From Nemertoderma westbladi (taxonomy: Eukaryota > Animalia > Xenacoelomorpha), in contig JAUCBJ010006701.1 in NCBI GenBank assembly GCA_032718475.1, forward strand, positions 62,001 to 126,000: DNA of 64,000 nt, given 5' to 3'. The notes beneath the pieces are model-generated. The model saw only the letters and a program-made list of their open reading frames with translations. It was not told the origin of the DNA and did no database searches. Below, piece by piece: positions 7,091-64,000 of the stretch (positions are counted from its first letter, which is position 1; the number at the start of each line of letters is the position of its first letter). Position numbers and translations under genes: made by a program.

Positions 7091-7094
7091 CAAT

Positions 7095-14461: not shown

Positions 14462-14471
14462 TTTTAGTTAC
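14462..14471 (-). promoter_or_regulatory. Non-tRNA primer-binding site of B (sense GTAACTAAAA)
   Basis: Abuts the LTR end. It is the exact complement of sense TTTTAGTTAC inside the LTR at 14635-14644. Confidence 0.75.
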
Positions 14472-15002
14472 TGTGACGGGATCCAGGAGGGATCCCGATT
14501 TATCCGGTATTTTAGTTTACGCGTCCCCGCCGTGTATAAAGAGTAAACGAAAGCAGTGAATGAGTTCTGATGTTCGGTGTATAATAACTGATGGGTATAA
14601 AATATAGATATAGATATGTGGAAGGCGGGATACGGTAACTAAAAGTCCCGTGCTCCCCTATCTAAACTAACTAACCTAAGCTAGCACTACTGCATTTGAG
14701 ATAACTGAATTACTGATTAATAGGTTACTGATTATATTACACGGTTGGCCTAATTACTACCTAATCGATGCCTTGCCCCCCTCTGATTGGTTGATACCCT
14801 TGTTGGCGCCCCGTGGAGTGTTCCCGTTCACTCCACCTGTTCTCTCTGGGTTAGGGGTTTGGCCCCTGACCCTTTATTGTGTGCTTCCTTCCCACTCTTA
14901 TTGGGATGGCACGAGTTGGTTAACTATCCAATCTCGTGGCTCCCAATATTGCTTATCGGCTTATAACTTTATGGGGTGTTAGCGGGATTGAATAAGCTAA
15001 CA
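14472..15002 (-). repeat. 5' LTR of B (531 bp, sense TGTTAG...GTCACA)
   Basis: Homologous to 46065-46602 and 59841-60388, with TG...CA termini. Confidence 0.93.
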
Positions 15003-15393
15003 AATAGGTTGTTACTATAATACATCACAGAATAATTTTTTAAAAGCATTAATTAAAAATAATATTTTAGATACATCCAATTACCCTAAGGATCACCCGC
15101 TTTATAGTAATAAAAATAAATCGAGACTTTATTACTGTAAAGACAAACTAGCCTCACGTGAAATTAAACAAGCAGTATTTTTAAGACCAAAATTATATTC
15201 AATTTTGGAATAGAATAACAAAAATATTCGTAGAGCAAAAGGTATTACAAGAGCTGTTGTGGAAACGAATATTACATATGAAGAATATTTAAAAGCATAT
15301 AACTCAAATGAAGAAATAATAAAAAACATACACAGATTTCAATCTAAATTACATCGTATTTATACCTTAAAGCAAAATAATTTGCACTCAGTA
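15003..15393 (+). pseudogene. Polinton/Maverick protein-primed DNA polymerase B, C-terminal fragment 1
   Basis: Own translation from 15004: LDTSNYPKDHPLYSNKNK...FLRPKLYSILE*NNKNIRRAKGITRAVV...FQSKLHRIYTLKQN(fs)ALS. These are typical Polinton pPolB C-terminal motifs. AT-rich, with a stop at 15211. Confidence 0.85.
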
Positions 15394-16168
15394 TGATAAA
15401 CAACCGCGACCTCTATACTAACAGCAGAACTGTTGAACAGACCAATACCCGTTAATATCCTTCTGTCAACCTAATGAGCTCTCGCCTAACCAATAAGACA
15501 CAAATAATGCTCTACTGTTAAGTAAAGGGGATCAGGAGCGTGATATTACTAAATTGTAAAGGTGGCTAAATACAAAACCGCTACTTACCGTTGGATGGCG
15601 CTAATCTGCCGTCCGCTAATATATTTTACTAAATTTACACAACTCCTGCAAAATCGCTTGTTCCTTTCTCTACCGATCGCTCGATAGAGAGCTAACTGTT
15701 CGAATCTATGAGCCACGCGGGAATAACCAAAACAATAAACCCGAGTCGGCTCCCTAAGCTTACTTAAGACGAGTGCGAGAGGCCTTGCACTCAGAGTATT
15801 CTTACGCCTAATTCTATCACTATTAAAACACGCTATTGTCTACGTCTTTCTAATCGCGAATACTGGAGGTTCCCTAACGTAATGTGTGAATGCGAGAATA
15901 TTTAAAATAATCAAAATGATACAGTAATTGTTTTTACGTGGATAGTACCACTCTGGGTCTAAACTTGCCTGCGGCTGGCTTTAGGCCAGCAAATTACTAG
16001 CGTATTGTGTGTACCGAATAGTGCGATCTAGCTGATTGCCCGCTAGTGCAAATAACCGCTCAGCGTGAATAGTTTACAGTACTCTAATTATTACCTTAGC
16101 TACTCTCCGCTATGCTGCGTACTAATTCTTAATTTTTACTAATCAATTACAGTCACAAATATTTAACA
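15394..16168 (-). repeat. Remnant of the C 3' LTR (terminal 775 bp)
   Basis: Matches 31003-31777 with about 3 substitutions. Fused by deletion directly to the accessory ORF. Confidence 0.93.
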
Positions 16169-18412
16169 AATATTCTCTAACGATTGGTTGAAGAACGGGG
16201 TTAAGAAACGCTTCATCACGTCGGATTGGATTCCCCATTTCGAGCGAACGTATTGATCTCCTCCGAATACCAATGGATGACGCTTCAAAACTCGCGCAAC
16301 GATATCCGCTAATAAACAAGTCACCGTGTTCGACTCAAGCACCAAATAATATTGTAGCGACGCACGGGGTGGGGCGCAAATGTTCCAATACACTAACGCT
16401 TGCCGCTTGAAGTGGGATTTGAACTCCGCTCCCGGTGGCGTGTTGTATTCACCATACGCCTCCTCGTACTTCTTCTGCGTCTTTAACTTAAAGTCCCAAT
16501 TATACAACAAGTGTGCTATAAAACCCATACCAGTCTTGGCAGAGTTGGGATACTCCCTATAAATTCCAATATCCTGTGCCCATAGCAACAATAGCTTGGT
16601 GTCGACAAACGGTCTCGGCAATCTATCTTCCAGATCAGTCATGGCGTTTAAGTCACTCTCCAAATCGCTCTGGACTCCCGATCCCACCTTGACGTAATCT
16701 TGGTTAAGAATAGCCTCTCTAACTTTCTTGGGTAACATCCTGGCGTCGATACGCTCCGCTCCGTGCATACCTCCTCGCCTGCATACCTCCAAAATCTGTT
16801 CCCTAGGATCCTTCCCCTTCCGATATTGTGTCGTTATGATGGGCTCCGGTCTCTCTCGATCCGCCCTCACACGCATAAACACATGAGTCACACCATCGGC
16901 CGCACGAATTTAAATACACTTGCTAGTCAAACATTCCTGATGGGACCCTCCTTCATTGTGGTAGAACATCACCCTCCAATCTTGCAGTGATTCCTCCGTT
17001 TTCCTCCCCTGACGCTGAATCTCGTCTGATGGGGTCCACATGCGCTCGATAGCCTTGTGGTCATCATATCGGGTATAAGAACCCTTCCTCCTCAGCCACA
17101 TCTGGTCTACCTCCTCGTCATCTGGGAATGTAGCCACCACGACCCATACCTTGATGTACTTATCCAACCATCCGAATAGCTTACTCTCCTTCCCCGGAGC
17201 TCCAATCTTATCCAACGTGTCGTAATCTGTGATCTGCATTGGGACATCACGCAAGAACTTCGCACATAAAACTTCCTGTAGACAGTCAACGTTCCAATGG
17301 TCCGCCATTCTTACCATCGGCAAGAATCGTATCGCTTCTCGCGATTCCGGATGATCTACTAATATCGCAGGTTCGGTGCCGTCGGAATAATACACCGGTC
17401 GGGGTTGAGATACGACCTGTGGAACAAATCCGGTCACTCTCCTCGTCTCCTCTTGATGTCTATCCGCGGTCTTATTATACTCCGCTATCCTGTTCTCAAA
17501 TAACTCTTTCGCCTTCGCCGCTCGCTCCTCCTGCCGCAACGCGTCTATGTCGTCCTGATGCTCAGGCGTGAGGCTTCTCACTCGGTGAGGTGAAGTAAAC
17601 GCAGTCCAGGGACTCGAGAGCTCCAAACCCGCGGGTTTGGTACCCGAGTCCCGCGCCGCTTCGCGCCGCGCCTCTAGATCCTTGTAGGCTCGGTACAGCG
17701 AAATGGCCGCTGCCGTCTCTATCAAACTGGGTGTCGAACAGGGTTTAATCTCCGTATACGGATCCAATGTCGTAACGGTCGGCGTAATGGGTCTCGGAGG
17801 TCGCTTTCCGCTGAAGTCGATACTGATCATCGGGTTGCTCATCGGGTAACCTCCCTCGTTGTATCTAAGGAATTGGTGAGCTGGACATCGCATTAATATC
17901 GGTTCCGGATGTTGCTCGTCTAATCGGTCGGGAATCGCCACGTCTTGTTTATTCATGCATTCACCACACTTGTAGAAGAGCTTGTATACGCTGAAGACTT
18001 TCGGCGTCTCCTGATCCTCGCCTCGAGTCCTCCGGTACAGATGCATTCCGTCAAACTGATCTCGGACTGCAGGTAGAGGCTCCTCGTGTCGTAAATACAT
18101 ATTCATATGGTATAGTCGTGCGATTTCCTCGTCCGGATCTGCGCTAATGTCACATACGTCCAAAGCGAAGTCGTAGGGATACCGCGTGCGATACTCTCTC
18201 CGCAAAACTTCCATCCGGTCCCCCAATGCTCTCATTCTTTCCCTCCGTAATTCTTTATCATAACTCGGCTTGTATTTCCCGTTTAGCTCCATCACGGACC
18301 GCCCATGGTAGTAAACGTTAGAGTCTTTACATCCTGGTCGCGCGAATGGTAGCTCCGCCTCCTCTCTGGCAGTAAATCCTCTGCGCGGTTGCGCTCTAAT
18401 ATCCCTCTCCAT
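16169..18412 (-). pseudogene. Family-C accessory ORF: N-terminal Cys/His domain plus DEDDy exonuclease-like domain; C-terminus deleted
   Basis: ORFs 16910-18445 and 16163-16891 are in frame across one TAA (CAA in family A). Motifs FYHNEG, KVGSGVQSDL, FVDTK, QYYLVLE. Alignable to the 36321-38120 protein. Confidence 0.85.
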
Positions 18413-19180
18413 TATGCCTCGCGTATATACATATATATATCCCAATAAGTGCCGTTACGTAACCAATTACACTGTGGGTAAATCAGTTAGATGTCGCCGA
18501 AGGACAGACCTCCCGAACCCCCCCCCCCCCCCCCCCCGCCTTCCAGCAGTTCAGGTTCGACTCTCTAGATCCCGTCTCTTCCTAACTAACTATCCTCTAA
18601 CCTATTCCCATGCATAGCGCAAAAACTTTGGAGATAAACTGGCCGTGACCAACTCACTTTTTGATGCCCAAACTACTCCCATTACTCGTACTAAACTACA
18701 GTAGTTAGAAAGGACCATAGCCACAATACTCGACTATACCAAACCCACAGGTTTGATAATCGAACATCACACATCCTGCAAACTACTGAGTGGGGTCCAT
18801 GTACGCCTCTGGTGCTACTAACCTTTAGCACCTTAGTTGCACTGTTGGCACCAATCTGTGGAAGTTGCTAAACTCAATTTACACTCCTACGTAATATAGC
18901 CGTCACCAAGGTTTCTAAATGCTATTTTCCAGGCTTCACGACTTTTCAAATTACTGTTTATCTATAGACGAATTCTAAAACGCGTCTATACACAGCGTCT
19001 GGAATTGTCTTGGGTTCACTTCTAATTTTAAAATTTTTAAATTTTCCAAAATTTTTGAAAATAAAATTTTGTTTTGATACCCACTAGACAAAACTCAACG
19101 CAAATCACCACAACCCCGCTCCTATGCATTTCCTTGTATTTGCATACGAGGAATGCATACGAAGTGAGTTGCGTCCAACA

Positions 19181-22469: not shown

Positions 22470-22516
22470 ATCAACTCTGAATTCAGGGACATACCTCTAT
22501 AGACTGCTGCGCAGTC

Positions 22517-29482: not shown

Positions 29483-30674
29483 AGTCTAAATAATGTTTGC
29501 CTTCCGGCAAAATATCTCGCAAAGGTTCGAGATATAATTATAATTTAACCGAAACACGGTCAAATTATTTGTCAAATAATCAGTTGGTCCAAAATGTCAA
29601 AATAAATTCGCAATGCAATATTGTGAATTTAATGGGGTATATAGTTATAGCAAATACTAGCACAATATTTAAACAAAAATATTATTATATAGCTACTATA
29701 TAGTATTAAATACCGGTATAGCACAAAATAACTTTGAATCTAATACAAAATATTCAAAATATACTTGCCGCCCGAATATTTCTAATTTTATATATATAGC
29801 TCTAATTAACGTAATTTTAGTTTCAAATATTATATGTATCCACTAGCACGTGGCTACATCTTCGGGTTGCGACTCTCTCTAACTCTCTCTCTAACTTGAG
29901 CGATTCAAAAAACCATGGCCGGCTAAACCTAAATATCCTAACTAATAAATTGAGTTCAGCTTCGTGTTTAAACAACCGATAATTTTTTACTGCTTCCACA
30001 AACACACCGGTGCCAACAGAACAACTAACCTTGTTTGCTGTGAGATTCCACGTCCGCGTCCAAAGATTCAGGCCCTTCGCTGATTGCAAACCGAACCCGC
30101 AGACCCACACGAACCCCAAACTCAGAAGTTCCGTCTTGCCATGTATCTCCAGATGGTATAAAATAACTAAGCGGTTACCTAACATACCGGTACAAAACTC
30201 TAGAATTTTACAAAATAATTTTGACCGAATCTCGCAAACCTAGCTAAAATTTTCAAAAACTTACTAATTACAATTTGCCCTAAGGCCTAAGGAACTGCTG
30301 TATTCGCAATTAGTAAAAACGCACTACCGTACATCCACTGTATGCAGTACAGTAAGTAAAACAGTACACCAACCTAACAGCCTAATTGATACTGTGTGTG
30401 TGGTACGGCAAACAAATGTCCTTCTACCGTACGCAGTAACAGCAATCAGCCTAATGTACTACTGTACTATTGTACGCGACCAGTGAATACAGTAATCTAA
30501 ACTAACAGCCTAAGAATACACTCAATGTTCTACTGTACGCTACAGCCTACAGCAAACAAAGCATACCTTACTGTTAAAGCAGTCAAGCAATCTAAAGTAA
30601 CAGTAGTCTAAACTAATCAGCCTAAGAATACACTATTGACCGCTGCAAGCAACAGCCAATAAAACGCATACCTT

Positions 30675-31002
30675 ACTGATACGAAGTATCAGTAATCTAA
30701 AAATACAATAATCTAAGCTAACAGCCTAAGAATACTCTATCTGCCTTACTGTACGCAGTACAGCAAAGCAATATACGCGTACTACTGATACGAAGTATCA
30801 GTAATCTAAAAATACAATAATCTAAGCTAACAGCCTAAGAATACTCTATCTGCCTTACTGTACGCAGTACAGCAAAGCAATATACGCGTACTACTGATAC
30901 GAAGTATCAGTAATCTAAAAATACAATAATCTAAGCTAACAGCCTAAGAATACTCTATCTGCCTTACTGTACGCAGTACGAAGTACAATATACGCGTATT
31001 AC
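30675..31002 (-). repeat. Three ~109-bp tandem repeats in the C 5' UTR, each carrying a PBS copy and a 9-bp hairpin; more degenerate units extend to ~30330
   Basis: Units start at 30675, 30784 and 30893. Hairpin TACTGATAC-GAA-GTATCAGTA. Confidence 0.9.
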
Positions 31003-33644: not shown

Positions 33645-33976
33645 TATTAGAAGAGATACCGTATTCCTACTAATGCGAAGAGACGGTAACAATACCTGCA
33701 ATATCCTACTGTAAAGTTTGTGAATCAAATCATAAATCCGACCTTCTCACCAAAACAGTAAACTCTAAGTAAGCGAATATATTGCAGTATCGATCTCTTA
33801 TTACCGGTGAGGCAGAAAACAGTTTACGAGCAGACAAACTTCGATAAAACAAAATCCCGCGCAGCGAATCCTAAAATCAGGCTGACTCACTGACGGACTA
33901 AGAGGCTCGTATACTTTGCCGCGGTGTGATTTATATGGTTGGGCAAAGGGACGCTAGCTAGGTACAGAGGCAGAGA
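33645..33976 (-). repeat. Remnant of the A2 3' LTR
   Basis: Direct repeat of 62648-62979. Fused by deletion to the last codons of the accessory ORF. Confidence 0.9.
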
Positions 33977-46064: not shown

Positions 46065-46602
46065 TGTGACGGGCTCCAGGAGGGATCCCGATTTATCCGA
46101 TGTGGTAATTTAGTCCACGCGTCCCCGCCGTGTATAAGGGTGAAATAAAGTGACTGAGTTCTGAAGTTCGGTGTATAATAATAATAGGGCATAGGATATA
46201 GATATAGATAATGTGTACAAGGCGGGATACGGTAACTAAAGTCCCGTGATCCCCTAACTAAACTAATTGGCTGTACCCTACGCTAGCACTGCTGCACTGA
46301 GATAACTGCATCACTGATTAATAGGTTATTGGTTATATTGCACGGTGGCCTTACTGCTACTCAATCGATGCCGTTCCCCCCTCTGATTGGTTAATACCCT
46401 TGTTGGCGCCCCGTGGAGTATTCCCGTTCACTCCACCTGTTCTCTCTGGGTTAGGGGTTTGGCCCCTGACCCTCTGTTGTGTGCTTCCTTCCCACTCTTA
46501 TTGGGAAGGCACGAGTTGGTTAATTGCCCAATCTCGTGGCTCCCAATATTGCTTATCGGCTAATAACTTTATGGGGTGTTGGCGGGATTGAATAAGCTAA
46601 CA
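46065..46602 (-). repeat. 3' LTR of D
   Basis: Homologous to 59841-60388 and preceded in sense by the PPT. Confidence 0.95.
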
Positions 46603-49850: not shown

Positions 49851-50349
49851 TACACTCGCTCACCTGTAGGGTGGTGCCTTACCAAGGCGCAATACAGATG
49901 AGTGATGTATTAAGATGTTTCGTACAGTTCGATAATGGCCTACTTTTCTACTTAACTGCGCCTTTCAAGCTTAATTTAATCTAATTAATTTCGGAGCTAG
50001 TAAATCAGCCTAATTTACAATTTCCGTCCGTTACTTTTATTATGTTCTAGAACGACTTTCTTTGTGTTACCACTATTTTCCGATTTTAGCCCTATTCTAT
50101 TTATTTGTTTATTTTGCTTTGATTCTACTGTCCTACTACTTACTACTGCCTATGGATTTATTCTATTCTCTCTCTGATCCATATTCTGGCCTACTCAGTG
50201 GGCCTATGCAGTACAGCAGTATGCGTCGTGTGGCCACACGATTTATCCAGCTGCACTCATATGCCCCCCTCTCGCTACTAACTCTACTTACTGCTAACTA
50301 ATATCTATATCCTATTTACCCCTTTTACCTCTTACTCTCTCTCTCTAAC

Positions 50350-51329: not shown

Positions 51330-54300
51330 TTAAGGTGCCCCTTCTAGAAGACAGCATTTACCTACCGCTCTCCTGTAGGTTTTTCTGTCCTTCGCACCTA
51401 TCTTTCCACCTATCCGCACTTCTACCGATCGGACTCTTCCGTCCTCGTCGGAGTAGGTGCCTACAACTCTCGCCAACCGCCACTGGTTGTTGATGATAGT
51501 ATCATCCGTGACGATTACGAGATCTCCCTCTCTTAACTCCCTGTTCGGCTTCCTCCACTTGCTCCGCTTATGGAGTGTGGGTAGGTATTCCTCTACCCAC
51601 CTCCTCCAGTATTCTGCGCTAATTGCTTTAGCTACTTTCCAACTTTGGCGGGAGTGTATATCATCTGGGTCTACACCCCGCATATCGATGGTCGCTGGCC
51701 TTTCCATCAGGAAATGGCTAGGTGTTAGCACGTCTAATGACTCAGGGTCATCATTCTCTGGATATAGCGGTCTGCTATTAATGATCCCCTCGCACTTCGC
51801 AAGTACTGTCCGTAAGACGTCTTCAGTGACCATGTGGGTGTTCATCAGCTTCGTCATTAGACGTTTTGAACTGCCCACCAGTCTCTCGACGCATCCTAGT
51901 GTATGTGGTGCATACGGCGTCCTTCTCTCCCACTTCACTTGTCGTCTTCTCATGGCCGCCCTGACTTCTTCTCCCTCCAAGATGTCTAAGGCCTCTGCCA
52001 TCTCACTCTCTGCGCCCACAAAGTTGGTGCCGTTGTCGCTATATATCACTGCGATCGTCCCACCTTTGCGGTCCCTAAACCTTTCTAAGGCGTTAATGAA
52101 TGCTGATGCGGTTGCATCTTGGGCGAGTTCTATCCCTACCGCCCGCGTATTGTTGCATACGAAGATAATACCGTAGCGTTTCTCCGTGTGTCGCATCACC
52201 TTGATCTTTATCGGCCCGAACATGTCCACACCGCAATGCGTAAATGGCGGGTCGTGCTGTCTTACCCTACTCGCCGGTAGTGGCGCCATCTCCTGTACGG
52301 CTCGCTCCTTCTTCGCTCGTCGGCAGGTCTGGCACTGCCCCACTACCGCTTTCACCTTCTTCCTTAGTTGTTTGACCCAATAGGTCCTCCTTATCTCTGT
52401 GAGGGTTCGGTTGGTGCCCCCATGCAGTATCGATTTGTGGGAGTCCCATATGATCTGGTGGACTATAGGCGATCCTGTGGGAATGATGATGGGTTTCGGT
52501 GGCACGACTATACTGTTGTTATATCCCACCCTAGAATTCATTACTAGAATCCCATCCTCGTTGAGTTGTGGCGACAGCGTGATCAACTCGCTATCCCGTC
52601 GGAGGTGCTGTTGGTTACCGACGCGTTCCACCTCGTCGCCGTAGTTCTTGCGTTGTTCATAGCGGATCACTGCCTTGGCCGCTCCTTCCAGATCTATGGT
52701 TATCCTGGTCTTCTTGTCCTTGCCGACTCCCGCAAGGAAATTCCCAAAGGCTCTCCAGTACGCCACTAGTTTCTTGGTCTTATACCAACTGGAACTGTAG
52801 CTGAGGAGTTTATCCGTCGGGTTGTCGCACAGTTCCCTTCCTGGTTGCACGTCCCTAATCTCCCTCACCATCTGGGAGTATATCTCTTCTCCCTCTGAAT
52901 CTCCCTCTTCTCCTTCTGATACTGGTTCCGAGCCCGGGTCCACCTTCCTCATCGGCGGCCAGGCCTCTCTATCGCTCAGAAATTGTGGCCCATGTTGCCA
53001 CAATACTTCCTTCTTCAGGAAAGTGTGGCGTTCCACGCCCCTCGACAGCAAGTCCGCTGGGTTCTCATCTGTTGGGCAGTAGTGCCACCTTTCCAGTTCT
53101 GTGCTCGCCCTTATTTCGTCCACTCTATTCGCGACGAATATCGGGTATCTCGTCTTTTCGTTGTGTAGCCAACCAAGCACTACCATGGAGTCCGTCCAGT
53201 AGTGTGTCTCCACTATGTTGGGAATTGTATCCACTAGGTAGGCTGTGGCTCTAACTCCTAGTCTCGCAGCTGTCAATTCTAACTTGGGAACAGATGCTGA
53301 ATCTGGCGGCGTTGACTTAGCTTTGCTAAAGGCTAGTCTGGGCTTGTGAGGCCCCTCTCGTTGTACTAAATAGAGTGCCGCTCCGTATGCCTCTAACGAC
53401 GCGTCGGAGAACATATGTAGGTCCAGATTCGTCATGTTCCCGTCCGGGAAATACACTCGCGGCATGTTGTATGTTCCCATCCTCTCCAAGTCTCCTGTCC
53501 ATTTGCTCCACTGTTTCTTGATGTCTTCTGGTACCTCTACGTCCCACTCATCCTTCAACTTATATACTCTCTTGAGTATCTGTTTCCCCGTGACTAGTAA
53601 TGGGGATGCTAGGCCTAAGGGATCGTATATCCTTGCTATATACGATACGTAACCCCTCTTCGTATGGGTGTCTGCGCCCTCCTGGCTCAGCTGATACTTC
53701 AGTTCGTCTGTTTTTCTATCCCACACGATTCCCAACGCCTTCTGCTGGGATTCCGTTCTCTTAATCGCCATGTCCTGTCCTTTGGCTGTTGTAGGGTTGT
53801 CCATGGTCGATTCTGGTTTCTTGTCTTCTATTTCCCTGATAAATTCTTCTGAACTGGATTGGAATTTGGTCAGGTTGAAGCCGGATCCTTTCAGGATGTC
53901 GCGAACCTCGCGCCCTGTTTCCAGTATCTCCTCAACCGTATTTCCAGACTCCATGCCGTCGTCTACGTAGAAACCGCGTCTGATCATATCGACGGCCCTA
54001 CTGCTGTATCTATCTTCCTTCCCCTTTACCGTGTCTCTCACTGCCATAGTCGTCGTAAATGAGGACGACTTGGCCCCCATATTTTGTACTACCATCTTAT
54101 ATGCCGGTATTATAGGCGGTTCTTCTTCGCCGTTATACCATAAGAAGCGTTGACTGTCGCTATCTTCCTCTGTTACTCGGACTTGGTTGAACATGCCTTC
54201 TATGTCACACGTGAAGGCGTGTTTCCCATTCCTAAATCTAAGTAGTACTTCTATGCCCGAATTGTATATGTTTGGGCCCTCTAGTAGGTAATCGTTTAAG

Positions 54301-56618
54301 CACTTTCCGTCGGTCTTTGCCGATGCATCGACTACCATCCTAAGTTTACCTTTCTTTGGGTCTAAAGCTACGTGGAGTGGCAGGTAGTATGTCCTGTCCG
54401 TGTTCGGTTCGTCGACCGGTAACTCCACGGCCCATCCTTTCTCGACGTACTTCTTAATGGTTTTGTGAATGTACTCGTTCTTCTCGGGGCTCCGTTGTAG
54501 TGTTTGTTTCAGCTTGCGGAGTCTCGTGAGTACCATCCCTCTATTATCGGGTAGCGGTATCTTCGGTAGTTTCCATACCATTCCTATTGTATACCGCCCC
54601 TCATCACACGTCATCGATTCCTCCACACTTTGTAGAGCCTGCTTGTCTTCTACCGAGGTCCCGACCCCGGTCTCTTTCAGTCCCTCGAAGTCCTGTCTGA
54701 GCAGTCTTTTAAGCTGCTCCTCTGCTCCCTCGTCACCCATTTCCTGCATTGTTCCCGCGAACATGCATCCTGATGTCTCCGACATCCTGAATGGTATCTT
54801 GCTCTTAATTGGACCACTCAGCGTCCACCCGAATGGCGTTAATATGGCCACCGGGTCGCTCTGCTTGTCTTCGCCGAAGACCGTCTGCATTCTCTCGTGG
54901 GCCGTTGGGCAGTCCATGCCTACTATGATGGATACCTTCCTAACGTCCACGTCTGGGATTGAGAAGTCAATGTTGTCCAGGAATTTGTATTGCTCGACCT
55001 CGATGTTGGTTGGCCGCCTGGCATTGATGTTAATTGACTCTATTACTTGGATGGGGTCGATGGTTGCCCCATAATCGCATCCTGGTGCCACTGCTGCAAT
55101 TGCGCACCGTCCTGTCCTCATCTCTAGGATCTCGTCTTTGCTAGAGATGGTTGTCACCGCCATCCTGCTTGGCCTCGTTCTCAACCCTATTTCTTCGGCT
55201 ACCCATTCCTCAACTAATGTGAAGGCAGCTCCACTATCAACCAGCATTAGTGTTGTTACTGATCGATTGCCTTCCCCGATCACTCGTACTGGTACTACTC
55301 CAAGTAGCACTGTTCCTCTCTTCTTCGCCCCTACTGTGCTCGTTGCCATCGTCTGGCCTCTCCTTTGGCCAAACTTGACCGGTTTCTCTTGGCATTCCCT
55401 GGCCTTGTGTCCACTCTTCACACATCGCGAGCAGATTTTATTGCTCGACGCGTAATCTATCTGGTCTTGCCTCGGTAGCGCCTGCCAGTACCTGCAGTTC
55501 ATGGTTTTATGAAGCGCATTTGCGTGTAACTGGCATTTGCTCTTTGGGTCATAGCCCTCTTTATACAATGCATTGCGTATCGCAGTTATATTCGTACCAA
55601 AGTCCCTACTATTCTTATTGACTGGGTTTGACCTACTGGACGTACTGGGGTTATGTTTATTCATGTTGTTATTGTTCCCCTGTCCGTCCCTTGATGTTGT
55701 CTTATCTTCGTTTGTCTGTGGACTTGCAGTCCCCTGCGTCGCTGCGTATGGCAATGATTGTCTGAGCCTCGGCAATGCGTTTGATGTATTGTGCTCTGGT
55801 TTGGGCCTGTAATGATCTGTCTTTGGTCCCTTTCCCAGGCTATCTTCACTATAGACTGGGTCCGTTATTAGTTCAGCCTCGTAATTTAAGAAGTTTGACA
55901 TTTCTTCTAAACCTGGTTCCGCACCCTTCTTGTCTCGGGTGGAGAAAGCGATCTTCCTCCATTTGTTGCGCAGCCAGCTCGGTAGTGCCTGCGCTATCGT
56001 GGTGATGTTATTGGACGCGTTGAGTTCGTATGGCGCGTCTAGCGTCTTCAGCACGATCAGCGCCTTCTCGACTTTGTTAGCAAACGTCTTAATGCTAACG
56101 GGATTATCCTGTAGGCCACCCGATGTTATGCCTCTCAGCGTTTGCCTGATGATCTTGGCCGGGTGCCCGTATTCCCTATCCAGTGCCCGCCATGCTGTCG
56201 TGAAGCCGCCCTCTATTCCCTGGTATTGCCTCACGATGTCGTATGCTGGGCCTCCCGTGTACACTTGTAGATACTTTAGGCACTCCGCCTGCGTCAAGTT
56301 TTTTGTTAGTATTTCGTTACTATACATTCGCCGAAACTGCAAGTATTCTTCCGGCCTGCTCCCATCGAATTTGAACGGTTCCACGGGTGGTAATTCGATC
56401 CTCGTTTTCAACGCATCGATCAACGTGGCCATCCCCATTGCCTGCGCTTCTAATGGATTCGACGGATGCTGTATAGTTTCCCCTGTCTGGTGCGGTTCGT
56501 CCGTCCTATTTCTTGATCTTCTCTGACTCGGATATGTCATCGGGGGTAGCGGCCCCCTCCATATGTCTGTATCACACGACCTGTTTTCGTCCAAGGGTTT
56601 CACTGTTCTTGCTACCAT
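51330..56618 (-). CDS. gag-pol: D Gag capsid/knuckles, protease, RT, RNase H, integrase (uninterrupted 1762 aa)
   Basis: Motifs PFKFDGS, CSRCVKSGHKAREC, LVDSGA, FYVDD, FSDAS, HGG...CQTC, GVDMFGP, SDNGTNF, YWRRWVEEYL. Confidence 0.96.
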   Translation of the reverse strand: MVARTVKPLDENRSCDTDIWRGPLPPMTYPSQRRSRNRTDEPHQTGETIQHPSNPLEAQAMGMATLIDALKTRIELPPVEPFKFDGSRPEEYLQFRRMYSNEILTKNLTQAECLKYLQVYTGGPAYDIVRQYQGIEGGFTTAWRALDREYGHPAKIIRQTLRGITSGGLQDNPVSIKTFANKVEKALIVLKTLDAPYELNASNNITTIAQALPSWLRNKWRKIAFSTRDKKGAEPGLEEMSNFLNYEAELITDPVYSEDSLGKGPKTDHYRPKPEHNTSNALPRLRQSLPYAATQGTASPQTNEDKTTSRDGQGNNNNMNKHNPSTSSRSNPVNKNSRDFGTNITAIRNALYKEGYDPKSKCQLHANALHKTMNCRYWQALPRQDQIDYASSNKICSRCVKSGHKARECQEKPVKFGQRRGQTMATSTVGAKKRGTVLLGVVPVRVIGEGNRSVTTLMLVDSGAAFTLVEEWVAEEIGLRTRPSRMAVTTISSKDEILEMRTGRCAIAAVAPGCDYGATIDPIQVIESININARRPTNIEVEQYKFLDNIDFSIPDVDVRKVSIIVGMDCPTAHERMQTVFGEDKQSDPVAILTPFGWTLSGPIKSKIPFRMSETSGCMFAGTMQEMGDEGAEEQLKRLLRQDFEGLKETGVGTSVEDKQALQSVEESMTCDEGRYTIGMVWKLPKIPLPDNRGMVLTRLRKLKQTLQRSPEKNEYIHKTIKKYVEKGWAVELPVDEPNTDRTYYLPLHVALDPKKGKLRMVVDASAKTDGKCLNDYLLEGPNIYNSGIEVLLRFRNGKHAFTCDIEGMFNQVRVTEEDSDSQRFLWYNGEEEPPIIPAYKMVVQNMGAKSSSFTTTMAVRDTVKGKEDRYSSRAVDMIRRGFYVDDGMESGNTVEEILETGREVRDILKGSGFNLTKFQSSSEEFIREIEDKKPESTMDNPTTAKGQDMAIKRTESQQKALGIVWDRKTDELKYQLSQEGADTHTKRGYVSYIARIYDPLGLASPLLVTGKQILKRVYKLKDEWDVEVPEDIKKQWSKWTGDLERMGTYNMPRVYFPDGNMTNLDLHMFSDASLEAYGAALYLVQREGPHKPRLAFSKAKSTPPDSASVPKLELTAARLGVRATAYLVDTIPNIVETHYWTDSMVVLGWLHNEKTRYPIFVANRVDEIRASTELERWHYCPTDENPADLLSRGVERHTFLKKEVLWQHGPQFLSDREAWPPMRKVDPGSEPVSEGEEGDSEGEEIYSQMVREIRDVQPGRELCDNPTDKLLSYSSSWYKTKKLVAYWRAFGNFLAGVGKDKKTRITIDLEGAAKAVIRYEQRKNYGDEVERVGNQQHLRRDSELITLSPQLNEDGILVMNSRVGYNNSIVVPPKPIIIPTGSPIVHQIIWDSHKSILHGGTNRTLTEIRRTYWVKQLRKKVKAVVGQCQTCRRAKKERAVQEMAPLPASRVRQHDPPFTHCGVDMFGPIKIKVMRHTEKRYGIIFVCNNTRAVGIELAQDATASAFINALERFRDRKGGTIAVIYSDNGTNFVGAESEMAEALDILEGEEVRAAMRRRQVKWERRTPYAPHTLGCVERLVGSSKRLMTKLMNTHMVTEDVLRTVLAKCEGIINSRPLYPENDDPESLDVLTPSHFLMERPATIDMRGVDPDDIHSRQSWKVAKAISAEYWRRWVEEYLPTLHKRSKWRKPNRELREGDLVIVTDDTIINNQWRLARVVGTYSDEDGRVRSVEVRIGGKIGAKDRKTYRRAVGKCCLLEGAP

Positions 56619-59600
56619 CGGGGTATATTGTTGATATTGTGATGGGGGAATGTCACCCTGTCCCCCCCCCCACCGGTATGTCTGGTACTGGGGTTGATGT
56701 TAATACGTTGGGGCCCATGCACCTATCCGCAATAATTCCCCCCTCCCCTGGGTATATGTTATGTCCCTGCATGCTGTAGTCATACTGCTGTGCTGGTACC
56801 GGTATAGGCCTATCAGCTTCTGGCCTACTCGCCGGTATGTATTCCGCGACTTCCGGGTTTAATCCCGTTGTCCGCGCTATCCTATCGCCTACATTGCCTC
56901 TCTCAGTATGGCCTACGGTATGTGCAGTAAGACCTACAGTATGCCCTACAGTCTGCATGTGTTGCTCGGGATCGAAGTTTATTCTTCTCGAATAATCCTC
57001 CCCGCGGCTACCGTATTCTCGATCGGTAGGTACATTCCGTCGGAAAGTTTCTCTTCGACCCCCCTCTCTACTGTTCTCTTCTTCGTACCGGTACATCGCG
57101 TACCCCTCTCTCGGCGTGTAATGCGTCTCACCGGATCGCATCCCTCCGGGGCGACGGCAATCTCCCGGAGTCCGACCCCACTGACTCTCCGTTCTCATCT
57201 CGATTACCGACGGCTCGCTGTCCGTCCTCGCTCTTCTATCGTTTGCGGCGATACTTCTACTACTCTCTTCCTCTCTTCTCCTATCAGTGGAATATTCCCG
57301 CTCACGAGATCTCTCGTCGACCTCCCGGTTAAACCCCACTGTTCTTCTTTCCTCCTCTGATCGGGCTCGACGCTCCGTCTGCCCTCCCGCGACGTCAACC
57401 TGTCTTTCTCTGCTCGATCGCACGTCGCTGGGGATACTCGCAATCCCCCTATTACTTTCCGTCGCCGGTTGTTGCGGTTTACCTTGTTCGGCCCTCGCAT
57501 TGTCCGCTGACGGCTGTGGGACACTCTCTGCCCCCCCCCCTCTCGCCGCTAACTCTCTGTTGTGGGGCCCTCGTAGCCCCCCCCCACTCGCTACATCTAA
57601 CTTCGCTACCTCTCTCCCCGCCATTATATACCTCTCTAGTCGACACATCAACCCTACTACAGTCGGGTCTATTTACCCCCCCTCTCCCTCTGCTATTGCG
57701 TGGCCTTCCAGGCCCTCTACTCCCTGCCTACCAACTACGTGGCCTACCAGGCCCTCTGCTCCTTGTCTACTAACTACGTGGCCTACCAGGCCCTCTTCCG
57801 GCTGGTTATGTAGGCCCGACGTGTTCACATTAATAGCACCCATATTGGAAACGGAATTAATTTGCTCGTTCGAAACAAAATCATTCGTATTATTCTGCGC
57901 GACTACGTTATCTGAATTATTTTGTAAATTCGGGCATGGATCATTATTTAAATTATTTGGATTATTTTGCGTAATCGCGTTATTTAGATTATTTAGTAAG
58001 TTCGAATTTGGGTTATTATTTTGATTATTTAAATTATTTTGCGTAATTACATTAATATTAGAATTATTTTCTACATTAATACTAGGATTGTTCTGATTTA
58101 AATTTAAATTACTACCACTAGGTAAAGTATTTCCTGCAATAAAGGTTTGATTAGAGTTATCCCATACGGTACTATTAATATCAACAACTTCTACTGTACC
58201 ATCATTATTACCCCCCCCCGCCCGTACGGTCACACCAGTTTTGGGTCTGTCGTGCGGTCCCTGTCAGTGGGGTATTAATAAACGTATCTAGGGCCCCCGG
58301 GTCCTCAAAAATACTCGAGCCGGCCCCGCTTGCAGACGGCGACGCTTGCGCCAGTCGCAGCTCGTGCGCCCGTCTAATCTTATGTTCCGCAAGCACACTT
58401 TGGCGTCTCTTTATTTTCTCTTGCTCTCGCTCAGCCTCTGCCCTTCTCTTCTCACACTCCTGGGTGTCCCGACTGCCCGACTCTACTATACTCCTAGCGC
58501 TCTCCCTTCGTCTCGCCTCACGCTCTTTGCGTTCCTTTTCCCTTCTCGTCTCATATTCCTTGCGTTCCTTTTCCCTTTTTGCCTCACGTTCCCTGCGTTC
58601 CCCGTCCTCCCTTTCCTCACGCTCTCTGCGTTCCCTTTCCTCCCTTTCCTCACGCTCTCTGCACTCATTTTCCTCTATTTCGTCTCTCTCCCTAAGGCTT
58701 CTCAAAGCTCTTTCGACCCTCTCTCCGGTCTCCTTAATCAATTCCGCTTCCCTCATTAACCGCACTCTCCCCTCCTCTAACCGTTCCTCCATTTCCTTCT
58801 GACCTTGCTCTACCACGTTGAGACGGTATGCGGCACCTATCTCTCTCACCACTCTTCCTTTCGCGGAGGATGTAGCAGACTTATCGGTTGCGACGGACCC
58901 CCTCCGCCTTCCCGACCTACTAACTTTCCCCCGCTTCCCGGAACTTTCTCCGACCGACGAGGCCGAATCCTCGCGGTTAACCTCGGATTCGCCCCCCTCA
59001 GGTCCCCTCCAACCCACTGGTTTTACTCCCCGGGCATCGACCAAGTATGGCCCTATGTACACTGGCGCTACGCTAGGTTCCATACTCCCACACTCCCATA
59101 GTTCAAACAGTTCGCCTGCAATTCCCTTTGCTCTCTCCCCGGCTAGTTCTCTCTGCCCAAAACGTATCAGGTAATTTAAGTGTCTGTCCGACTCACCTAG
59201 TCGCTTTCTCAGTCTCACCTCGTCTACCTTCGCCCCTTGCTTCTTGGCGTCGTTTATCAGCTTCCGGGTCGCGTTGTAGGCCCGTCGAAGTCGGTCAGAA
59301 ACCCCGACGTCCTCGTCGCCGACCTCTCCTCCGTCCCTCCGGGTCCGACGTCGTACCGGCGGCTCCACCGTCGCCGTTCCGGTGGGCCGCTCGTCGCCCT
59401 CGGCCTGTAGCTGGCCGGCGACATCGGTACCGATCTCTCCTCCGTCTCTTCGCGTCCGGCGTCGCACCGTCGGCCCCACCGTCGCCGTTTCGGTGGGCCG
59501 CTCGTCGCCCTCGGCCGGTAGCTGGCCGGCGACATCGGCGCGCCGTTCTCCGTTCCGTGTCGACTCATCTCCTTCTCCCTCCGTCTCGCTCTCCCTTTCC

Positions 59601-59761
59601 CTCTGCTCGACTTCGGGTTCCAGACCCTCCTCGTTCTGGACTTCCGGTTCGCCCGTTATCGATGGCTCCGGCGTCGTGGGCCTGTATCGCTTGGTCGCGG
59701 CCTCGCGGATCGTTAGGTCTTCGTCCGGGGTCCGCGGCGGTGTCTCGCCCGATTCACTCAT
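56619..59761 (-). pseudogene. gag: D Gag N-terminal ~1000 aa (acidic/coiled-coil, Asn-rich, disordered), frameshifted at homopolymer runs
   Basis: ORF pieces 58208-59761, 57673-58233 and 56653-57651 break at poly-C runs near 58211, 57676 and 56662. Colinear with B. Confidence 0.85.
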
Positions 59762-59831
59762 CTCGTCTGCTCGGTGGAGTTCGACTAGCTAGCGTGGGGT
59801 TCTTTGAGTTTAACTAGGGCGGCAGCTCGGA

Positions 59832-59840
59832 TTTAGTTAC
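59832..59840 (-). promoter_or_regulatory. Non-tRNA PBS of D (sense GTAACTAAA)
   Basis: Complement of LTR sequence at 60008-60016. Confidence 0.75.
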
Positions 59841-60388
59841 TGTGACGGGATCCAAGAGGGATCCCGATTTATCCGGTTGTGGTAATTTAGTCCACGCGTC
59901 CCCGCCGTGTATAAGGGTGAAATAAAGTGACTGAGTTCTGAAGTTCGGTGTATAATAGGATAGTTCATAGGATATAGATATTGTGAATGTGTACAAGGCG
60001 GGATACGGTAACTAAAGTCCCGTGATCCCCTATCTAAACTAATTGGCTATTATCCTACGCTAGCACTGCTGCACTGAGATGACTGAATCACTGGTAATAG
60101 TTACTGCCAAGTGGCTATACTGCACGGTTGGCCTTACTTACTACCTCAATCGATGCCGTTGCCCCCCTCTGATTGGTTGTTACCCTTGTTGGCGCCCCGT
60201 GGAGTATTCCCGTTCACTCCACCTGTTCTCTCTGGGTTAGGGGTTTGGCCCCTGACCCTCCGTTGTGTGCTTCCTTCCCATTCTTATTGGGATGGCGCGA
60301 GTTGGTTAATTGCCCAATCTCGCGGCTCCCAATATTGCTTATCGGCTAATAACTTTATGGGGTGTTGGCGGGATTGAATAAGCTAACA
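59841..60388 (-). repeat. 5' LTR of D (548 bp)
   Basis: TG...CA termini, followed by the TSD. Confidence 0.95.
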
Positions 60389-61838
60389 ATTGTCGTTCCC
60401 GTCCGGGTGCTCCTACGCTTCCTTCCTTCTTCCGTTCCTGAATTTGGCGATGTCTTACCTCTAACTGATCCAAATCATGTCCGTCACGAGATCTCATTGA
60501 TCGATCGCGGGCCTTTTGATCCAGATCCTCCTCGGCGTTCGCTAATTCTCTCGCCTTCTTCTCGAGTTCGAAATGAAGTTTAGCTGTCTTCTCTCGTTGT
60601 TCCGTTTGTTGTCGTTGCGCCTCAAACTCCGCTTGTCGTATAGCGGATTGAGCTTTTATTTGCCGTGTTTTCATTTCGGCCCGCGCTTCCGAAACTAACC
60701 TTTCTCATTCTAATTCCGCCGCTGCCGTTTGTCGCTCTAATTCCGCCGTTTGTCGCTCTAATTCCGCCGCTGCCGTTTGTCGCTCTAGTTCGGCCGCTGC
60801 GTTTCGTTGCGCTAAATCAGCCGCTGCCGTTCGTTGAGCAATGTCTACCTCTAACCTTTCTACTTCAGCTGCTTCTAATTCAGCTTGTTCCTGTAGATGA
60901 GAGATTCTCGCTACATTCGCAACGCGTAGCTTCTCTTCTTCTACTGCTGCCTGCATCACTAGAAGTTGAGCTTGTTCCTCCATTTCTCGTCGTTGTCGGT
61001 AGAATTCTTGCTGTTTTCGAGCAACTTCTGACGTAACCATACTTCCCTCGCCAATTTCGCTACGAATACTTACCAACGATTGATCCAATATTCCCGTTGC
61101 CGATTCGATTCGTACGGGTGAAGTTTCCCTCGTATATTCCGGCACGGTTTCCAAATCGCCGACGTCTTCGCCGCACATACGTAAGTGATCCGTCAGGTGT
61201 TTCAATTGTCCATCCAGTCGGTACAGTTCCTGTTCTTCCTCGGGTTGTAATAATTCGTCCGAAACTGACTCACCTAACAACTGGTCTGCTTGTTCCTGTT
61301 GTATCTGCCTAATCGTCGACTTAAACTGAATCAGTTTCTCTCTAGCGATCATTAGTTTCTCGAGGATTCTAAGTTGAGTATCCATGTCCTGTCTCTGTCT
61401 AGCTAGATCTTGTAGACCAATTAGGTTATCTACGGACTTGTGTACTCTACTTTGTACTCTAACCTGGAGGGTGTAGAACTCGAATCGAGACATCGGAGCG
61501 GTCAACTCGTTTAATATGCGTTGGCCTTCTCCAATACTCCTGGTTATATGCGCCATGTAACCTCCGACGCTTCTAACCACACTTTCTGTGCTTCCTGCTG
61601 AACTTACCAGGTCCGTTTCCCTGTATCTAGGTTGCGGAACAGTTAGAAAGTCCTCGGTCCTGCCGTCGCCTCGTACTACGGCATCCGGTACTCCCGTTGG
61701 ATGTACTGGTGACGCGCACGGTGTAGGTTCGGTAGGCTCGCGAGTCTTCCCCTGTTGTTCTTCCGCTGCTGACTTATCCGCGTCACATGAGTCATAGTCG
61801 GTTTGTGTATTCTTCGTATAGTCTTGTTTGTCACTCAT
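60389..61838 (-). pseudogene. gag: A2 Gag N-terminus (coiled coil, ELERQTAAA repeats) with one in-frame TGA
   Basis: ORFs 60705-61838 and 60339-60674 are in the same frame. MAHITR resembles AGHITR in C Gag. Confidence 0.88.
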
Positions 61839-62636
61839 TTCGGTAGTTGTAAGTCAAGTAAAGTGAGTGTCAAAGTATCAAACTTACCGTATTTTATCTA
61901 AACGGTACTAATTACAGTCATATAAAATTAGCCTACCGGCCGATTTTATAGCAGATGGATAAAATTAGCCTAAACGGCCAATTTTACAGCAAATAAATGT
62001 CACGGAATAAGTATATAATAAAATTAGCCTAGCGGCCAATTTTATAATAAATAAATCGGATAACGATATGCGTTATCAAAAGGTAAATTAAATACAATAA
62101 TTACGGACTAATTCAGCAATGAACAAAGAAATCATACGGAATGCATAAATACTTGAGACAGTGGAACCCACAATAATTTTAACTAATACGGTAATGCCTA
62201 ACTTATTTATGCAACTTTTCGAACTCACCCACTCCAATAATTCTCCAGAAAAACAGATTCCCACATACAAACCGGACGTGAACCTTTCCGTTTTCAGCGT
62301 TGCGGACGAAACGCGATTTTCCCAACCAAAGTTGTTGAGTTATCTATCTCCCAAACTTGCTAATCACGGTCTTGCTCCCGTTACAGTCTAGAAATGAGTT
62401 CTGAATCCTGAAAAACAAAAGAGTTAGGTTTTGCTTTTACGAAAATTTTGTACCGGTACAATATGGTATTTAAACCCTTTTAAACACCGGTATTCAATTC
62501 CAAAAATATTTTACACGCGGTTCAAATCAAATTTTATTTCAAAAAATTAGCACTTAGCTAATCAAATATAAACTTTTACCTCAAAATACAAAATTTTCAA
62601 ATAACTTTAGTCCTACCGAACCGTAGTTCAGTAAAA

Positions 62637-62647
62637 CATATTCCTAC
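62637..62647 (-). promoter_or_regulatory. Non-tRNA PBS of A2 (sense GTAGGAATATG)
   Basis: Abuts the LTR end at 62648. Exact 11-nt complement of LTR sequence at 63701-63711. Confidence 0.78.
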
Positions 62648-64000
62648 TATTAGAAGAGATACCGTATTCCTACTAATGCGAAGAGACGGTAACAATACCT
62701 GCAATATCCTACTGTAAAGTTTGTGAATCAAATCATAAATCCGACCTTCTCACCAAAACAGTAAACTCTAAGTAAGCGAATATATTGCAGTATCGATTTC
62801 TTATTACCGGTGAGGCAGAAAACAGTTTACGAGCAGACAAACTTCGATAAAACAAAATCCCGCGCAGCGAATCCTAAAATCAGGCTGACTCACTGACGGA
62901 CTAAGAGGCTCGTATACTTTGCCGCGGTGTGATTTATATGGTTGGGCAAAGGGACGCTAGCTAGGTACAGAGGCAGAGATTTGGAGATGTCTAACTAGCG
63001 GGCAAAACACAGTAAGGACGAAAGTTAATTTTATATATTTTGAGGTGTAAATAATTTCTAACGCGCGTGTGTTAATTCTGAACGGTCAAAAGCAGTTTTG
63101 CTCCTTCACATATATAATTACTGGGTACGGTGTGCATTTTACGAATATTCTAATTTTGTAACTTGTAGGTCCAATACTCACGAATGATAAGGTTCCTTCC
63201 CCTCTTGCGTATTTCCAGGACTCAAATTCAGGCATAAGGTTAATGCTACGCCCAGAATTCGGCAATTTTTAATTTACCAGGCCCCTAATACTAAGAAGAA
63301 ATGTGTTAGTTTACTACAGTAGGCGTACGGTTACTAATAGCTATCCTGGCTCTTGTCTAGAATTTTAGTCACCTAGGTAGGCTGGGTAACTTCCTATTAG
63401 GACGTTGGCGGGGACACGGTAGATGTTAGTATATCCCTAATAGCCTCAATTTATTTGCGCCTAGTTGTAAACTGCCCTACCGCCTGAACGGTACAATCCC
63501 AATTCAGGTGAAACACAACGACCCTCCTAGCCTACAAGTTCTAATGCAATGGACACCGTTGTACTGCAAATAGTCACAGACGCACCTGCACTTAGCAAGA
63601 GTTAGGCGTACAGTTTGCTGCACCCTACCAATGTGTATGCCTTGTACCGGTGTGCCTACGTCCTATCTGCGTACTAGTATCTGCCTGCTCTCCTCCCCCC
63701 GTAGGAATATGAAGGTCTACTGTGGTTTTTTCCTGAATCAAGACAGTACAGTCCCTAAGATGTAATTTTAGGCTCACAGCTTGTCACTACTTCTACCTTT
63801 GATCTTTGGTCTTACGCTTAGGTAGCAAGGCGTCGAACGCTGTCTAACCTTTCAGGCGATGGGCGAATAACTAAGGTGGTATTGCGGGTTGTCTCCTGTC
63901 TACATTCCTTTGATGTTCCCGTTCATTGCTGCGGCCCGATCTCTAGCCGGCCATCCTGTTCCTAAGAGTGTTCACCGTAGTGAATCATGGTGAAAAGAAA
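62648..64000 (-). repeat. 5' LTR of A2 (partial, >1.35 kb)
   Basis: Matches 33645-33976 directly and 5781-7090 inverted. Confidence 0.87.

Follow-up and report, generated by a model that had tools for sequence, protein, structure and literature searches.

Four LTR retroelements of the BEL/Pao type in the window analysed here, a stretch of 64,000 nucleotides from Nemertoderma westbladi, carry directly after the 5' LTR a primer-binding site (PBS) whose complement lies inside the LTR of the same family, and we consider it somewhat probable that these elements (D, A2, B and C) prime minus-strand DNA with their own LTR RNA, cut at the edge of the duplex. Directly visible in the letters are the pairing itself, its onset right at the first base behind the LTR, and the way PBS and site vary in concert from one family to the next. 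According to the textbooks, LTR elements are primed by tRNAs, and the exception on record is Tf1/sushi. The features of these elements and of A1 are as follows.

59841..60388, minus strand: D 5' LTR, 548 nt, TG...CA; element D is flanked by the target duplication ATTGT
59832..59840, minus strand: D PBS, 9 nt, adjoining the LTR
60008..60016, minus strand: D LTR site complementary to the PBS (putative primer), its 3' end 167 nt short of the LTR end, predicted pairing 0.97
59897..60007, minus strand: D stem predicted by RNA folding, beginning directly 3' of the site, arms 60007-59997 with 59906-59897
46065..46602, minus strand: D 3' LTR, 538 nt, with a purine tract in front of it and the same site at 46232-46240
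47307..49859, minus strand: D extra ORF2, 850 aa, open, with an exonuclease-like domain (aa ~100-340) and a zinc-knuckle cluster
51330..59788, minus strand: D gag-pol in three frames, with a 1789-aa part carrying BEL/Pao domains (Peptidase_A17, DUF1759, DUF5641)
14472..15002, minus strand: B 5' LTR, 531 nt, same family as D
14462..14471, minus strand: B PBS, 10 nt, one A more than D
14635..14644, minus strand: B complementary LTR site, one U more than D
31003..33211, minus strand: C 5' LTR, 2209 nt, TATAAA at 32673, single AATAAA at 31823, target duplication CAGTA
30993..31002, minus strand: C PBS, pairing 9/10
30674..31007, minus strand: C leader tandem repeat, 3.1 x 109 nt, with 10/10 PBS copies in units 2 and 3 (30885-30894, 30776-30785)
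32071..32080, minus strand: C complementary LTR site, 248 nt before AATAAA, the sole site in the C LTR with <=2 mismatches
15394..16168, minus strand: C 3' LTR remnant, 775 nt, without the site, 3 substitutions versus the 5' LTR
16163..18454, minus strand: C ORF2, with an in-frame stop inside and the 3' end cut off
62648..64000, minus strand: A2 5' LTR, extending past the window edge, ending in AATA, not CA, with AATAAA at 63455
62637..62647, minus strand: A2 PBS, 11 nt
63701..63711, minus strand: A2 complementary LTR site, 246 nt before AATAAA, predicted pairing 0.98
62664..62712, minus strand: two relic units of LTR end plus PBS-like sequence in the U5 of A, first bases 62712 and 62673
33645..33976, minus strand: A2 3' LTR remnant, 332 nt, without the site
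34739..38231, minus strand: A2 ORF2 in two frames, with exonuclease-like motifs and zinc knuckles
38780..46282, minus strand: A2 gag-pol, downstream of the nested D element
4493..7095, plus strand: A1 3' LTR, its start placed from a purine tract and unproven
Within the A1 3' LTR, plus strand: TATAAA at 5589, AATAAA at 5731 and 6323, site variant at 6063-6073

The PBS and site positions and letters given in a preliminary description of this DNA were all correct on re-reading, with 11/11 positions paired in A2, 10/10 in B, 9/9 in D and 9/10 in C, whose tandem duplicates pair at 10/10. Likewise, no TGG occurs in the 45-52 nt read behind any of the four 5' LTRs; the first three PBS letters are GTA in all, and the putative primers end in UAC. 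The pairing is bounded exactly by the LTR end, as had been claimed, the matches of A2, B and D peaking at leader position +1 (11, 10 and 9 nt versus 6, 5 and 4 nt when starting one base earlier), and four host-flank junctions used as a control match for 4-6 nt only. The fit is best within the own family (11 nt for the A2 PBS versus 3-5 nt in other families; 10 versus 3-5 nt for the C duplicate). PBS and site differ across families, and between B and D they have changed jointly, the one-base A/U difference being present at both partners.

The chance of 1e-3 to 1e-4 per family that had been estimated does not hold for every family. Dinucleotide shuffles reached the observed match in 2/5000 cases for the 11 bp of A2, 4/5000 for the 10 bp of B and 19/5000 for the 9 bp of D, whereas C is far weaker, with 172/2000 (one mismatch allowed), its duplicates giving 3/2000. 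The C pairing is weaker than first claimed and, taken alone, not significant; the first C PBS is mismatched although the C LTRs are 99.6% alike. Three families do carry the pairing (A, C and B/D), but B and D, whose RTs are 96.5% identical, count once, and hence there are three tests only, two of them on families (A and C) related at 60%. That the site lies inside the own LTR is true of all four 5' LTRs, although the C site falls outside the 775 nt common to both C LTRs and is placed inside the 5' LTR because that LTR extends to 33211, as shown by the 5-bp target duplication CAGTA. In the 3' LTRs of C and A2, deletions span the complementary site, and the 3' and 5' LTRs of D differ by 26 substitutions. 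The A1 copy of the site is one base off and matches the A2 PBS over 8 nt only, A1's own PBS falling outside the window.

Assignment to BEL/Pao rests on protein domains; the 18-nt PBS for tRNA-Arg or tRNA-Gly given in the ICTV 2021 profile of Belpaoviridae/Semotivirus (PMC8742986) is absent, no TGG following any of the 4 LTR ends. The domains are present in the order PR-RT-RH-IN, Peptidase_A17 being matched in all four elements (B, C, A2, D) at E 1e-28 to 1e-42; DUF1759 and DUF5641 are also found, and the closest database relatives carry the same domains. The best of these relatives are up to 40% identical to the D RT/RH, and one 7-residue motif also occurs in a Nematostella Sinbad family. Domains, domain order, 5-bp target duplications (ATTGT in D, CAGTA in C) and the purine tract before the 3' LTR (D) agree with the ICTV description, whereas the lack of TGG, the 2.2-kb C LTR and the 14.3-kb total span of D differ from it, the ranges in the profile being 0.2-1.2 kb for LTRs and 4.2-10 kb for genomes (PMC8742986). 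The earlier statement that BEL/Pao elements are generally described as tRNA-primed is confirmed by this profile, which calls their replication poorly understood (PMC8742986). A single, independently evolved lineage, as had been proposed, is compatible with the data but goes beyond them: in a tree of 44 hand-picked rows without P0095, SH-aLRT 93 (unstarred) supports a group of the four window RTs in which B/D has a long branch, and a first FastTree RT tree of 124 rows put this long-branched outsider inside the window group at support 0.97.

In the self-priming route that we favour, transcription would start upstream of the site, as suggested by TATA-like motifs 474 nt (A1), 593 nt (C) and 94 nt (B) upstream of it, and the site would hence lie inside R. 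These motifs argue against the site being the 5' end of the RNA as in Tf1; it probably is not, and seems to be internal to R. The distance from site to AATAAA is 250 nt in A1, 246 nt in A2 and 248 nt in C, and that to the LTR end is 1022-1068 nt in the three. B/D have no canonical AATAAA 3' of the site, and A1 has an additional one at 5731, upstream of the site, use of which would place the site in U5, where a cut in cis would leave no R for transfer. Folding of the RNA would bring the site onto the PBS, aided by a second helix just 3' of the site, and a cut directly behind the terminal UAC would follow, most likely made by the RNase H of the element, as happens in Tf1. D, A2 and C all have the YxDD motif of RT as well as RNase H motifs, the RNase H activity itself being predicted. 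From the 3'-OH, RT would then copy U5 and what is left of R (~270 nt in A and C), and this part of R would be used in the first strand transfer. During plus-strand synthesis the primer would be copied back, which would hold PBS and site in agreement. Self-priming, already put forward in the preliminary description, stands as the best reading of a family-specific pairing anchored at the LTR end, with priming itself a step beyond that pairing. Both A2 LTRs end ~27 nt beyond that of A1, behind a duplicated end-plus-PBS unit, and the LTR end therefore follows the better-paired copy.

Predicted site:PBS pairing reaches 0.98 in A2, but is 0.0 if folded from 64000, when a relic unit captures the site, and in D it is 0.77-0.97 in 6/9 windows and 0.0 in 2/9 (37 C). 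B folds to a decoy in U5, with site:PBS pairing of 0.00-0.08 in 18/18 folds, and the C fold is window-dependent (0.6-0.87 when started at 32080; a start at 32100 yields a local hairpin). The four first PBSs form duplexes of only modest energy (-7.3 to -13.7 kcal/mol). A second helix starting just 3' of the site is predicted in A and B/D; the D stem arms are identical in B and in both LTRs of D, and an 8-bp helix between purines 3' of the site and the LTR end retains 8/8 pairs in A1 and A2 despite three changes. Among 947 aligned contigs, 31 substitution rows at 27 positions fall within 59858-59995, none of them in site, PBS or stem arms, which is weak evidence; 12 of the 59 indel rows of this alignment over 221 nt were read, and 40 of the 1186 substitution rows of an 8-kb alignment, which were uninformative about the sites. 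Two further candidates were rejected: extended pairing past the core was no better than with shuffled flanks (267-729 of 1000), and a spliced primer, with the PBS pairing to an exon-exon junction, gave 8 nt at best (A2, B) and <8 nt in C and D versus 9-11 contiguous nt.

Tf1/sushi elements lack a tRNA site and have, beside the 5' LTR, a PBS of ~11 nt that pairs with RNA of the element's LTR (PMC7175516, PMC10085805, PMC4600332). With Tf1 and Tf2 of Schizosaccharomyces pombe, Tj1 and Tf1/sushi, the window elements share the missing tRNA site, the pairing of PBS and own LTR (9/10 in C) and, as predicted, neighbouring helices. They differ in being BEL/Pao and not Ty3/gypsy chromoviruses, a chromodomain match being absent, and in the extra exonuclease-like ORF. 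Whereas Tf1 forms a pretzel of three duplexes, a central duplex plus one flanking helix is predicted here for A and B/D, the B and C folds being ambiguous; the 8-bp A1/A2 helix resembles one of the pretzel duplexes (PMC10085805).

A self-made primer might instead arise by trimming, the putative ORF2 exonuclease shortening the 3' tail of the PBS partner, a short LTR transcript or the 3' R copy of the genomic RNA, to the duplex edge. We regard this as unlikely, and equally so the scenario of a lineage that swapped the host tRNA for a mid-R LTR primer with its 3' end made by a captured DEDDy exonuclease. The extra ORF in all three families resembles, as a lead only, a zinc-knuckle-bearing DEDDy 3'-5' exonuclease: motifs read by eye are D-x-E (H-x-E in C), K[VI]GS...D and YxxxE, homology links the domains of D and A2 (E 3e-06), and Atlas searches, which cover D and A2, pointed to PF01612 3'-5' exonuclease clusters for D (0.94, family on 34% of members) and A2 (0.92, family on 17% of members; top cluster mostly rotifer). 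Trimming would also suit a site internal to R with AATAAA ~250 nt downstream in A and C, and retroelement DEDDy ORFs have been suggested to process the 3' ends of element RNA (PMC5408684). However, ORF2 has no match in Pfam or among PDB sequences, and its two structure models (pLDDT 37-40) gave no significant fold match, the model at pLDDT 40 reaching E 0.13 against EXD2, and RNase D appearing with Z 3.7 and rmsd 4.7 over 104 aligned residues at rank 17 amid unrelated rows. In searches for ORF2 relatives 0/1643 candidates scored, and 1.84 billion representatives gave one match, of low complexity. Furthermore, A1, A2 and C each have a broken ORF2, the helix directly 3' of the site would hinder an exonuclease, and the DEDDy ORFs of bdelloid Ty3/gypsy and Penelope-like elements have no stated link to priming, the terms 'priming' and 'PBS' being absent from the paper on them (PMC5408684). 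Bdelloid Juno/Vesta LTR elements and Athena do resemble the window elements in an extra downstream DEDDy-like ORF (ORF3 there), but they are Ty3/gypsy and Penelope-like, and the window ORF is longer and adds zinc knuckles (PMC5408684).

Doubtful as well is a reading of the pairing as a structural switch acting in packaging, translation or poly(A), with priming by a non-CCA host RNA such as a tRNA half. Internal tRNA-iMet priming occurs in copia and Ty5. PBS-like decoys are found in each LTR (the relic units of A, a U5 stretch in B/D that also varies in A count, and an 8-nt direct match in C), B folding to its own, and the common GTA is what a shared host primer end might give. However, three unrelated PBSs would need three different host RNAs, each mirrored in the LTR too, and a switch would work without a start at precisely base +1. 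Were the primer a tRNA 5' half with its end at a UAC anticodon, PBS positions 4 and 5 would have to be purines (U33/Y32 rule), as they are in 1/5 PBS versions (A2). The window has no match to tRNA and Rfam models, and 4400-7200 has none at E up to 1. Caenorhabditis elegans Cer7, a BEL-type element, carries its own primer as an element-borne tRNA and has an ordinary tRNA-type PBS; the window elements differ in that no tRNA was found in the window. Least credible, and very improbable, is a functionless pairing born of chance or left by a past inverted duplication, since A2 and B/D are each significant with different letters, their matches begin at +1 and the A and C sites keep an equal distance to AATAAA, even though C alone falls short, the families are related and all lie in one window.

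Pattern searches for related loci gave 77 matches in viral contigs and 11 in prokaryote genomes, with 0 confirmed in either, and the D LTR-end/PBS pattern is absent from viral contigs; in metagenomes 6/115 were confirmed, all of 1.1-5.0 kb and too short to reach the LTR. A literature search found no description of BEL/Pao self-priming, in line with the earlier supposition. If true, host-independent priming arose at least twice, BEL/Pao being a large animal group, and the primer need not be the 5' end of the RNA. This would explain elements overlooked by tRNA-based PBS annotation and provides a simple sequence test for such elements. An exonuclease-trimmed primer, if true, would be a route unlike both tRNA priming and the Tf1 RNase H cut, and would give retroelement exonuclease ORFs their first function; the role of retroelement DEDDy ORFs is thereby made testable.

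Self-comparison and target duplications, on which the placements of A1, A2, B, C and D rest, revealed a nest of BEL/Pao elements in the window.

Elements in the window, with the strand of each
A1, ending at 7095, forward strand: family A element, apparently inserted in B
14472-15002, reverse strand: 5' LTR of B
31003-33211 and 15394-16168, reverse strand: 5' LTR and 3' remnant of C
22481-24400, forward strand: LINE-type (non-LTR retrotransposon) reverse transcriptase (RT) fragment inserted in the RT of C, in opposite orientation to C
From 62648 (running off the window) and 33645-33976, reverse strand: 5' LTR and 3' remnant of A2
46065-60388, reverse strand: D, nested in the gag of A2

Peptidase_A17, DUF1759 and DUF5641 were found in these elements (Pfam), whose named relatives reside in cnidarians, echinoderms, crustaceans, a mollusc, an arachnid and fish (32-40% identity). 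RT/RNase H identity is 96.5% between B and D, 60% between A2 and C and 32-36% between those two pairs, and therefore three families can be distinguished, as had been proposed in the preliminary description. The tree (SH-aLRT 93, unstarred; long branch) is compatible with, but does not demonstrate, one origin of A/C and B/D. Tandem arrays are present between pol of D and ORF2, an extra ORF preceding the 3' LTR (50277-51213, 32-36 nt units), and inside the A2 pol between RNase H and integrase (40676-41050, 12-nt units). In the 3' LTRs of A2 (33976-33977) and C (16168-16169), U3 and R are deleted, with deletions beginning inside ORF2; the A2 junction is without splice-site letters, and this one window thus contains two similar deletions. 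The D LTRs (59841-60388 versus 46065-46602) differ at 26 positions and by indels although the target duplication is perfect, and over one stretch the 3' LTR is closer to B than to the D 5' LTR, which suggests recombination or conversion. The AT-rich flanks at 15003-15393 and 33212-33644 encode, upon translation, fragments that look like pieces of a protein-primed DNA polymerase B and of a TBP-like protein, as in a Polinton-type element that may have hosted the LTR-element insertions.

The primer-binding position (PBS) directly after the 5' LTR was initially described as lacking the TGG start and as pairing with a stretch within the LTR of the same family (the site), a putative primer ending in UAC-3'. 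Every pairing listed for A2, B, C and D is indeed present, TGG is absent after all four 5' LTRs and pairing stops at the LTR boundary, a start one base earlier leaving a match of only 6 (A2), 5 (B) or 4 nt (D). Dinucleotide-shuffled LTRs reached the anchored match in 2/5000 (A2), 4/5000 (B) and 19/5000 (D) cases, and for C in 172/2000 with one mismatch allowed (duplicate 10-mer, 3/2000). Within the first 400 leader positions, equal match length is attained by just 2 (A2), 1 (B) and 1 (D), position +1 always among them, and four host-flank junctions reach 4-6 nt only. The C site is the sole match with at most two mismatches in 2209 nt and lies 248 nt upstream of the single AATAAA of its LTR, the corresponding distances being 246 nt in A2 and 250 nt in A1 with different site letters. 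Judged from these sequences, PBS-site pairing is a real, non-random feature.

Beyond the initial GTA, PBS letters of A, C and B/D are unrelated, and each matches its own LTR. The reported one-A difference between B and D was borne out at both partners: relative to D, B has an additional A in the PBS and an additional T in the site. A1 and A2 sites differ by one base, the A1 PBS lying beyond the window. Alignment of 947 public contigs (four runs, at most three samples) to 59815-60035 gave 31 rows of substitutions, which cover 27 positions and all fall within 59858-59995. None of these rows affects the D site, PBS or either arm of the site-adjacent stem, which lends weak support, with PBS and site near the stretch ends, divergent contigs clipped and 12 of 59 indel rows listed.

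In the U5 of family A, an LTR end followed by PBS-like sequence occurs twice as a relic unit (62712 and 62673). A1 has only the first, its LTR ending at 7095. The two LTRs of A2 extend through the second as well, terminating about 27 nt further on, immediately ahead of the 11/11 copy. We infer that the unit was duplicated and that priming then shifted to the downstream copy, lengthening the LTR. The C leader has 109-nt repeats, each starting with the last five bases of the LTR, which look like an earlier stage of this process. This LTR-end history shows that the sequence behaves as a PBS and by itself does not identify the primer. Family A LTRs terminate in AATA, not CA, at all three ends examined (62648, 33645 and 7095), and because the two A2 LTR ends differ at 1 of 329 bases, this non-canonical end appears to have integrated recently.

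TATAAA with an upstream CCAAT precedes the site by 474 nt in A1 and 593 nt in C, and B has a TATA-like box 94 nt upstream. Because AATAAA follows about 250 nt after the site and TATAAA is upstream, the A and C site would lie inside R, far from the presumed start, with start and poly(A) predicted from motifs, whereas in Tf1 the first 11 bases constitute the primer (accessible part of PMC7175516). Counting against R-internal placement are a second AATAAA in A1 at 5731, upstream of the site, and the occurrence of only ACTAAA and GATAAA variants after the B/D site. At 5665-5691, between TATA box and first AATAAA, the A1 LTR has what look like a strong branch point, a pyrimidine tract and an AG, a possible sign that an LTR transcript is spliced or trans-spliced. 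A splice-built primer, tried on the window elements, fails. A tRNA-like stretch in the A1 3' region (5300-5385), resembling A-box and B-box, gave no ARAGORN or Rfam matches.

Folding predictions provide mixed evidence on site:PBS pairing. For D, pairing is predicted at 0.97 with a 10-bp stem from the very next base. Of nine D windows folded at 37 C, six give 0.77-0.97, one gives 0.47 and two give 0.0. A2 pairing is 0.98 with 1074 nt folded from 63730, yet 0.0 from 64000; predicted C pairing varies with the folding window, and the B site pairs with a PBS-like U5 decoy in 18/18 folds. Pairing extended beyond the core is no better than with shuffled flanks. In family A, the LTR end is predicted to pair with a purine tract that follows the site (8/8 pairs in A1 and in A2), a helix similar to one of the flanking duplexes in the Tf1 pretzel (accessible part of PMC10085805). 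The number of A residues in the PBS-like U5 stretch (B 14510-14520, D 59885-59895) differs between B and D, and the difference runs the same way as in PBS and site; this stretch may serve as decoy or switch.

An element-encoded primer, whether produced by RNase H cutting or by ORF2 trimming, is probable overall. Somewhat better than even are the chances of fold-back self-priming, in which the RNA would fold back, the site would pair with the PBS as primer and RNase H of the element would cut the primer RNA after UAC; this is favoured because of the analogy with Tf1 and because a helix sets in directly at, or close to, the base that follows the site. In Tf1, the cDNA often keeps a PBS copied from the primer (accessible part of PMC11042837), and copy-back of this kind would keep PBS and site linked. 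A bolder variant, trimming of the primer by ORF2, seems unlikely. Every family has ORF2, which is uninterrupted in D but disrupted in A1, A2 and C; the versions of D and A2 have in common a domain with acidic motifs (E 3e-06) and a cluster of zinc knuckles (E 2e-06), and both match 3'-5' exonuclease (PF01612) clusters in Atlas, an identity that Pfam, PDB and fold searches did not confirm. Bdelloid retroelements carry DEDDy ORFs, for which 3'-end processing of element RNA is offered as a possibility (accessible part of PMC5408684). It is likewise doubtful that the pairing is a structural switch with priming by a non-CCA host primer. A tRNA half ending at the UAC anticodon suits only one of five PBS versions under the U33/Y32 rule, in a comparison confined to such halves among tRNA fragments. 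Chance origin of the pairing is very improbable, even if the C pairing taken alone would not convince.

According to the ICTV profile (PMC8742986), BEL/Pao elements use a host tRNA-Arg or tRNA-Gly as primer, and their replication is poorly understood. No self-priming in BEL/Pao was found in the literature searched, whose scope excluded subscription papers and Repbase reports and leaves absence unproven; 'BEL Pao' with 'self-priming' gave no match, although this phrase may miss papers that spell the name with a slash, as is usual. In their accessible parts, PMC3601003, PMC4600332, PMC5443660, PMC13524379, PMC3286476 and PMC3587641 connect self- or hairpin priming with Tf1-type elements or leave the subject aside, and PMC3118150 and PMC554778 (Sinbad) are without a PBS or tRNA passage. 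From the earlier proposal of an independently evolved self-priming lineage, the non-random pairing stands, and a single origin would be compatible with the tree. These elements most likely represent a new form of self-priming within a superfamily for which tRNA priming is described.
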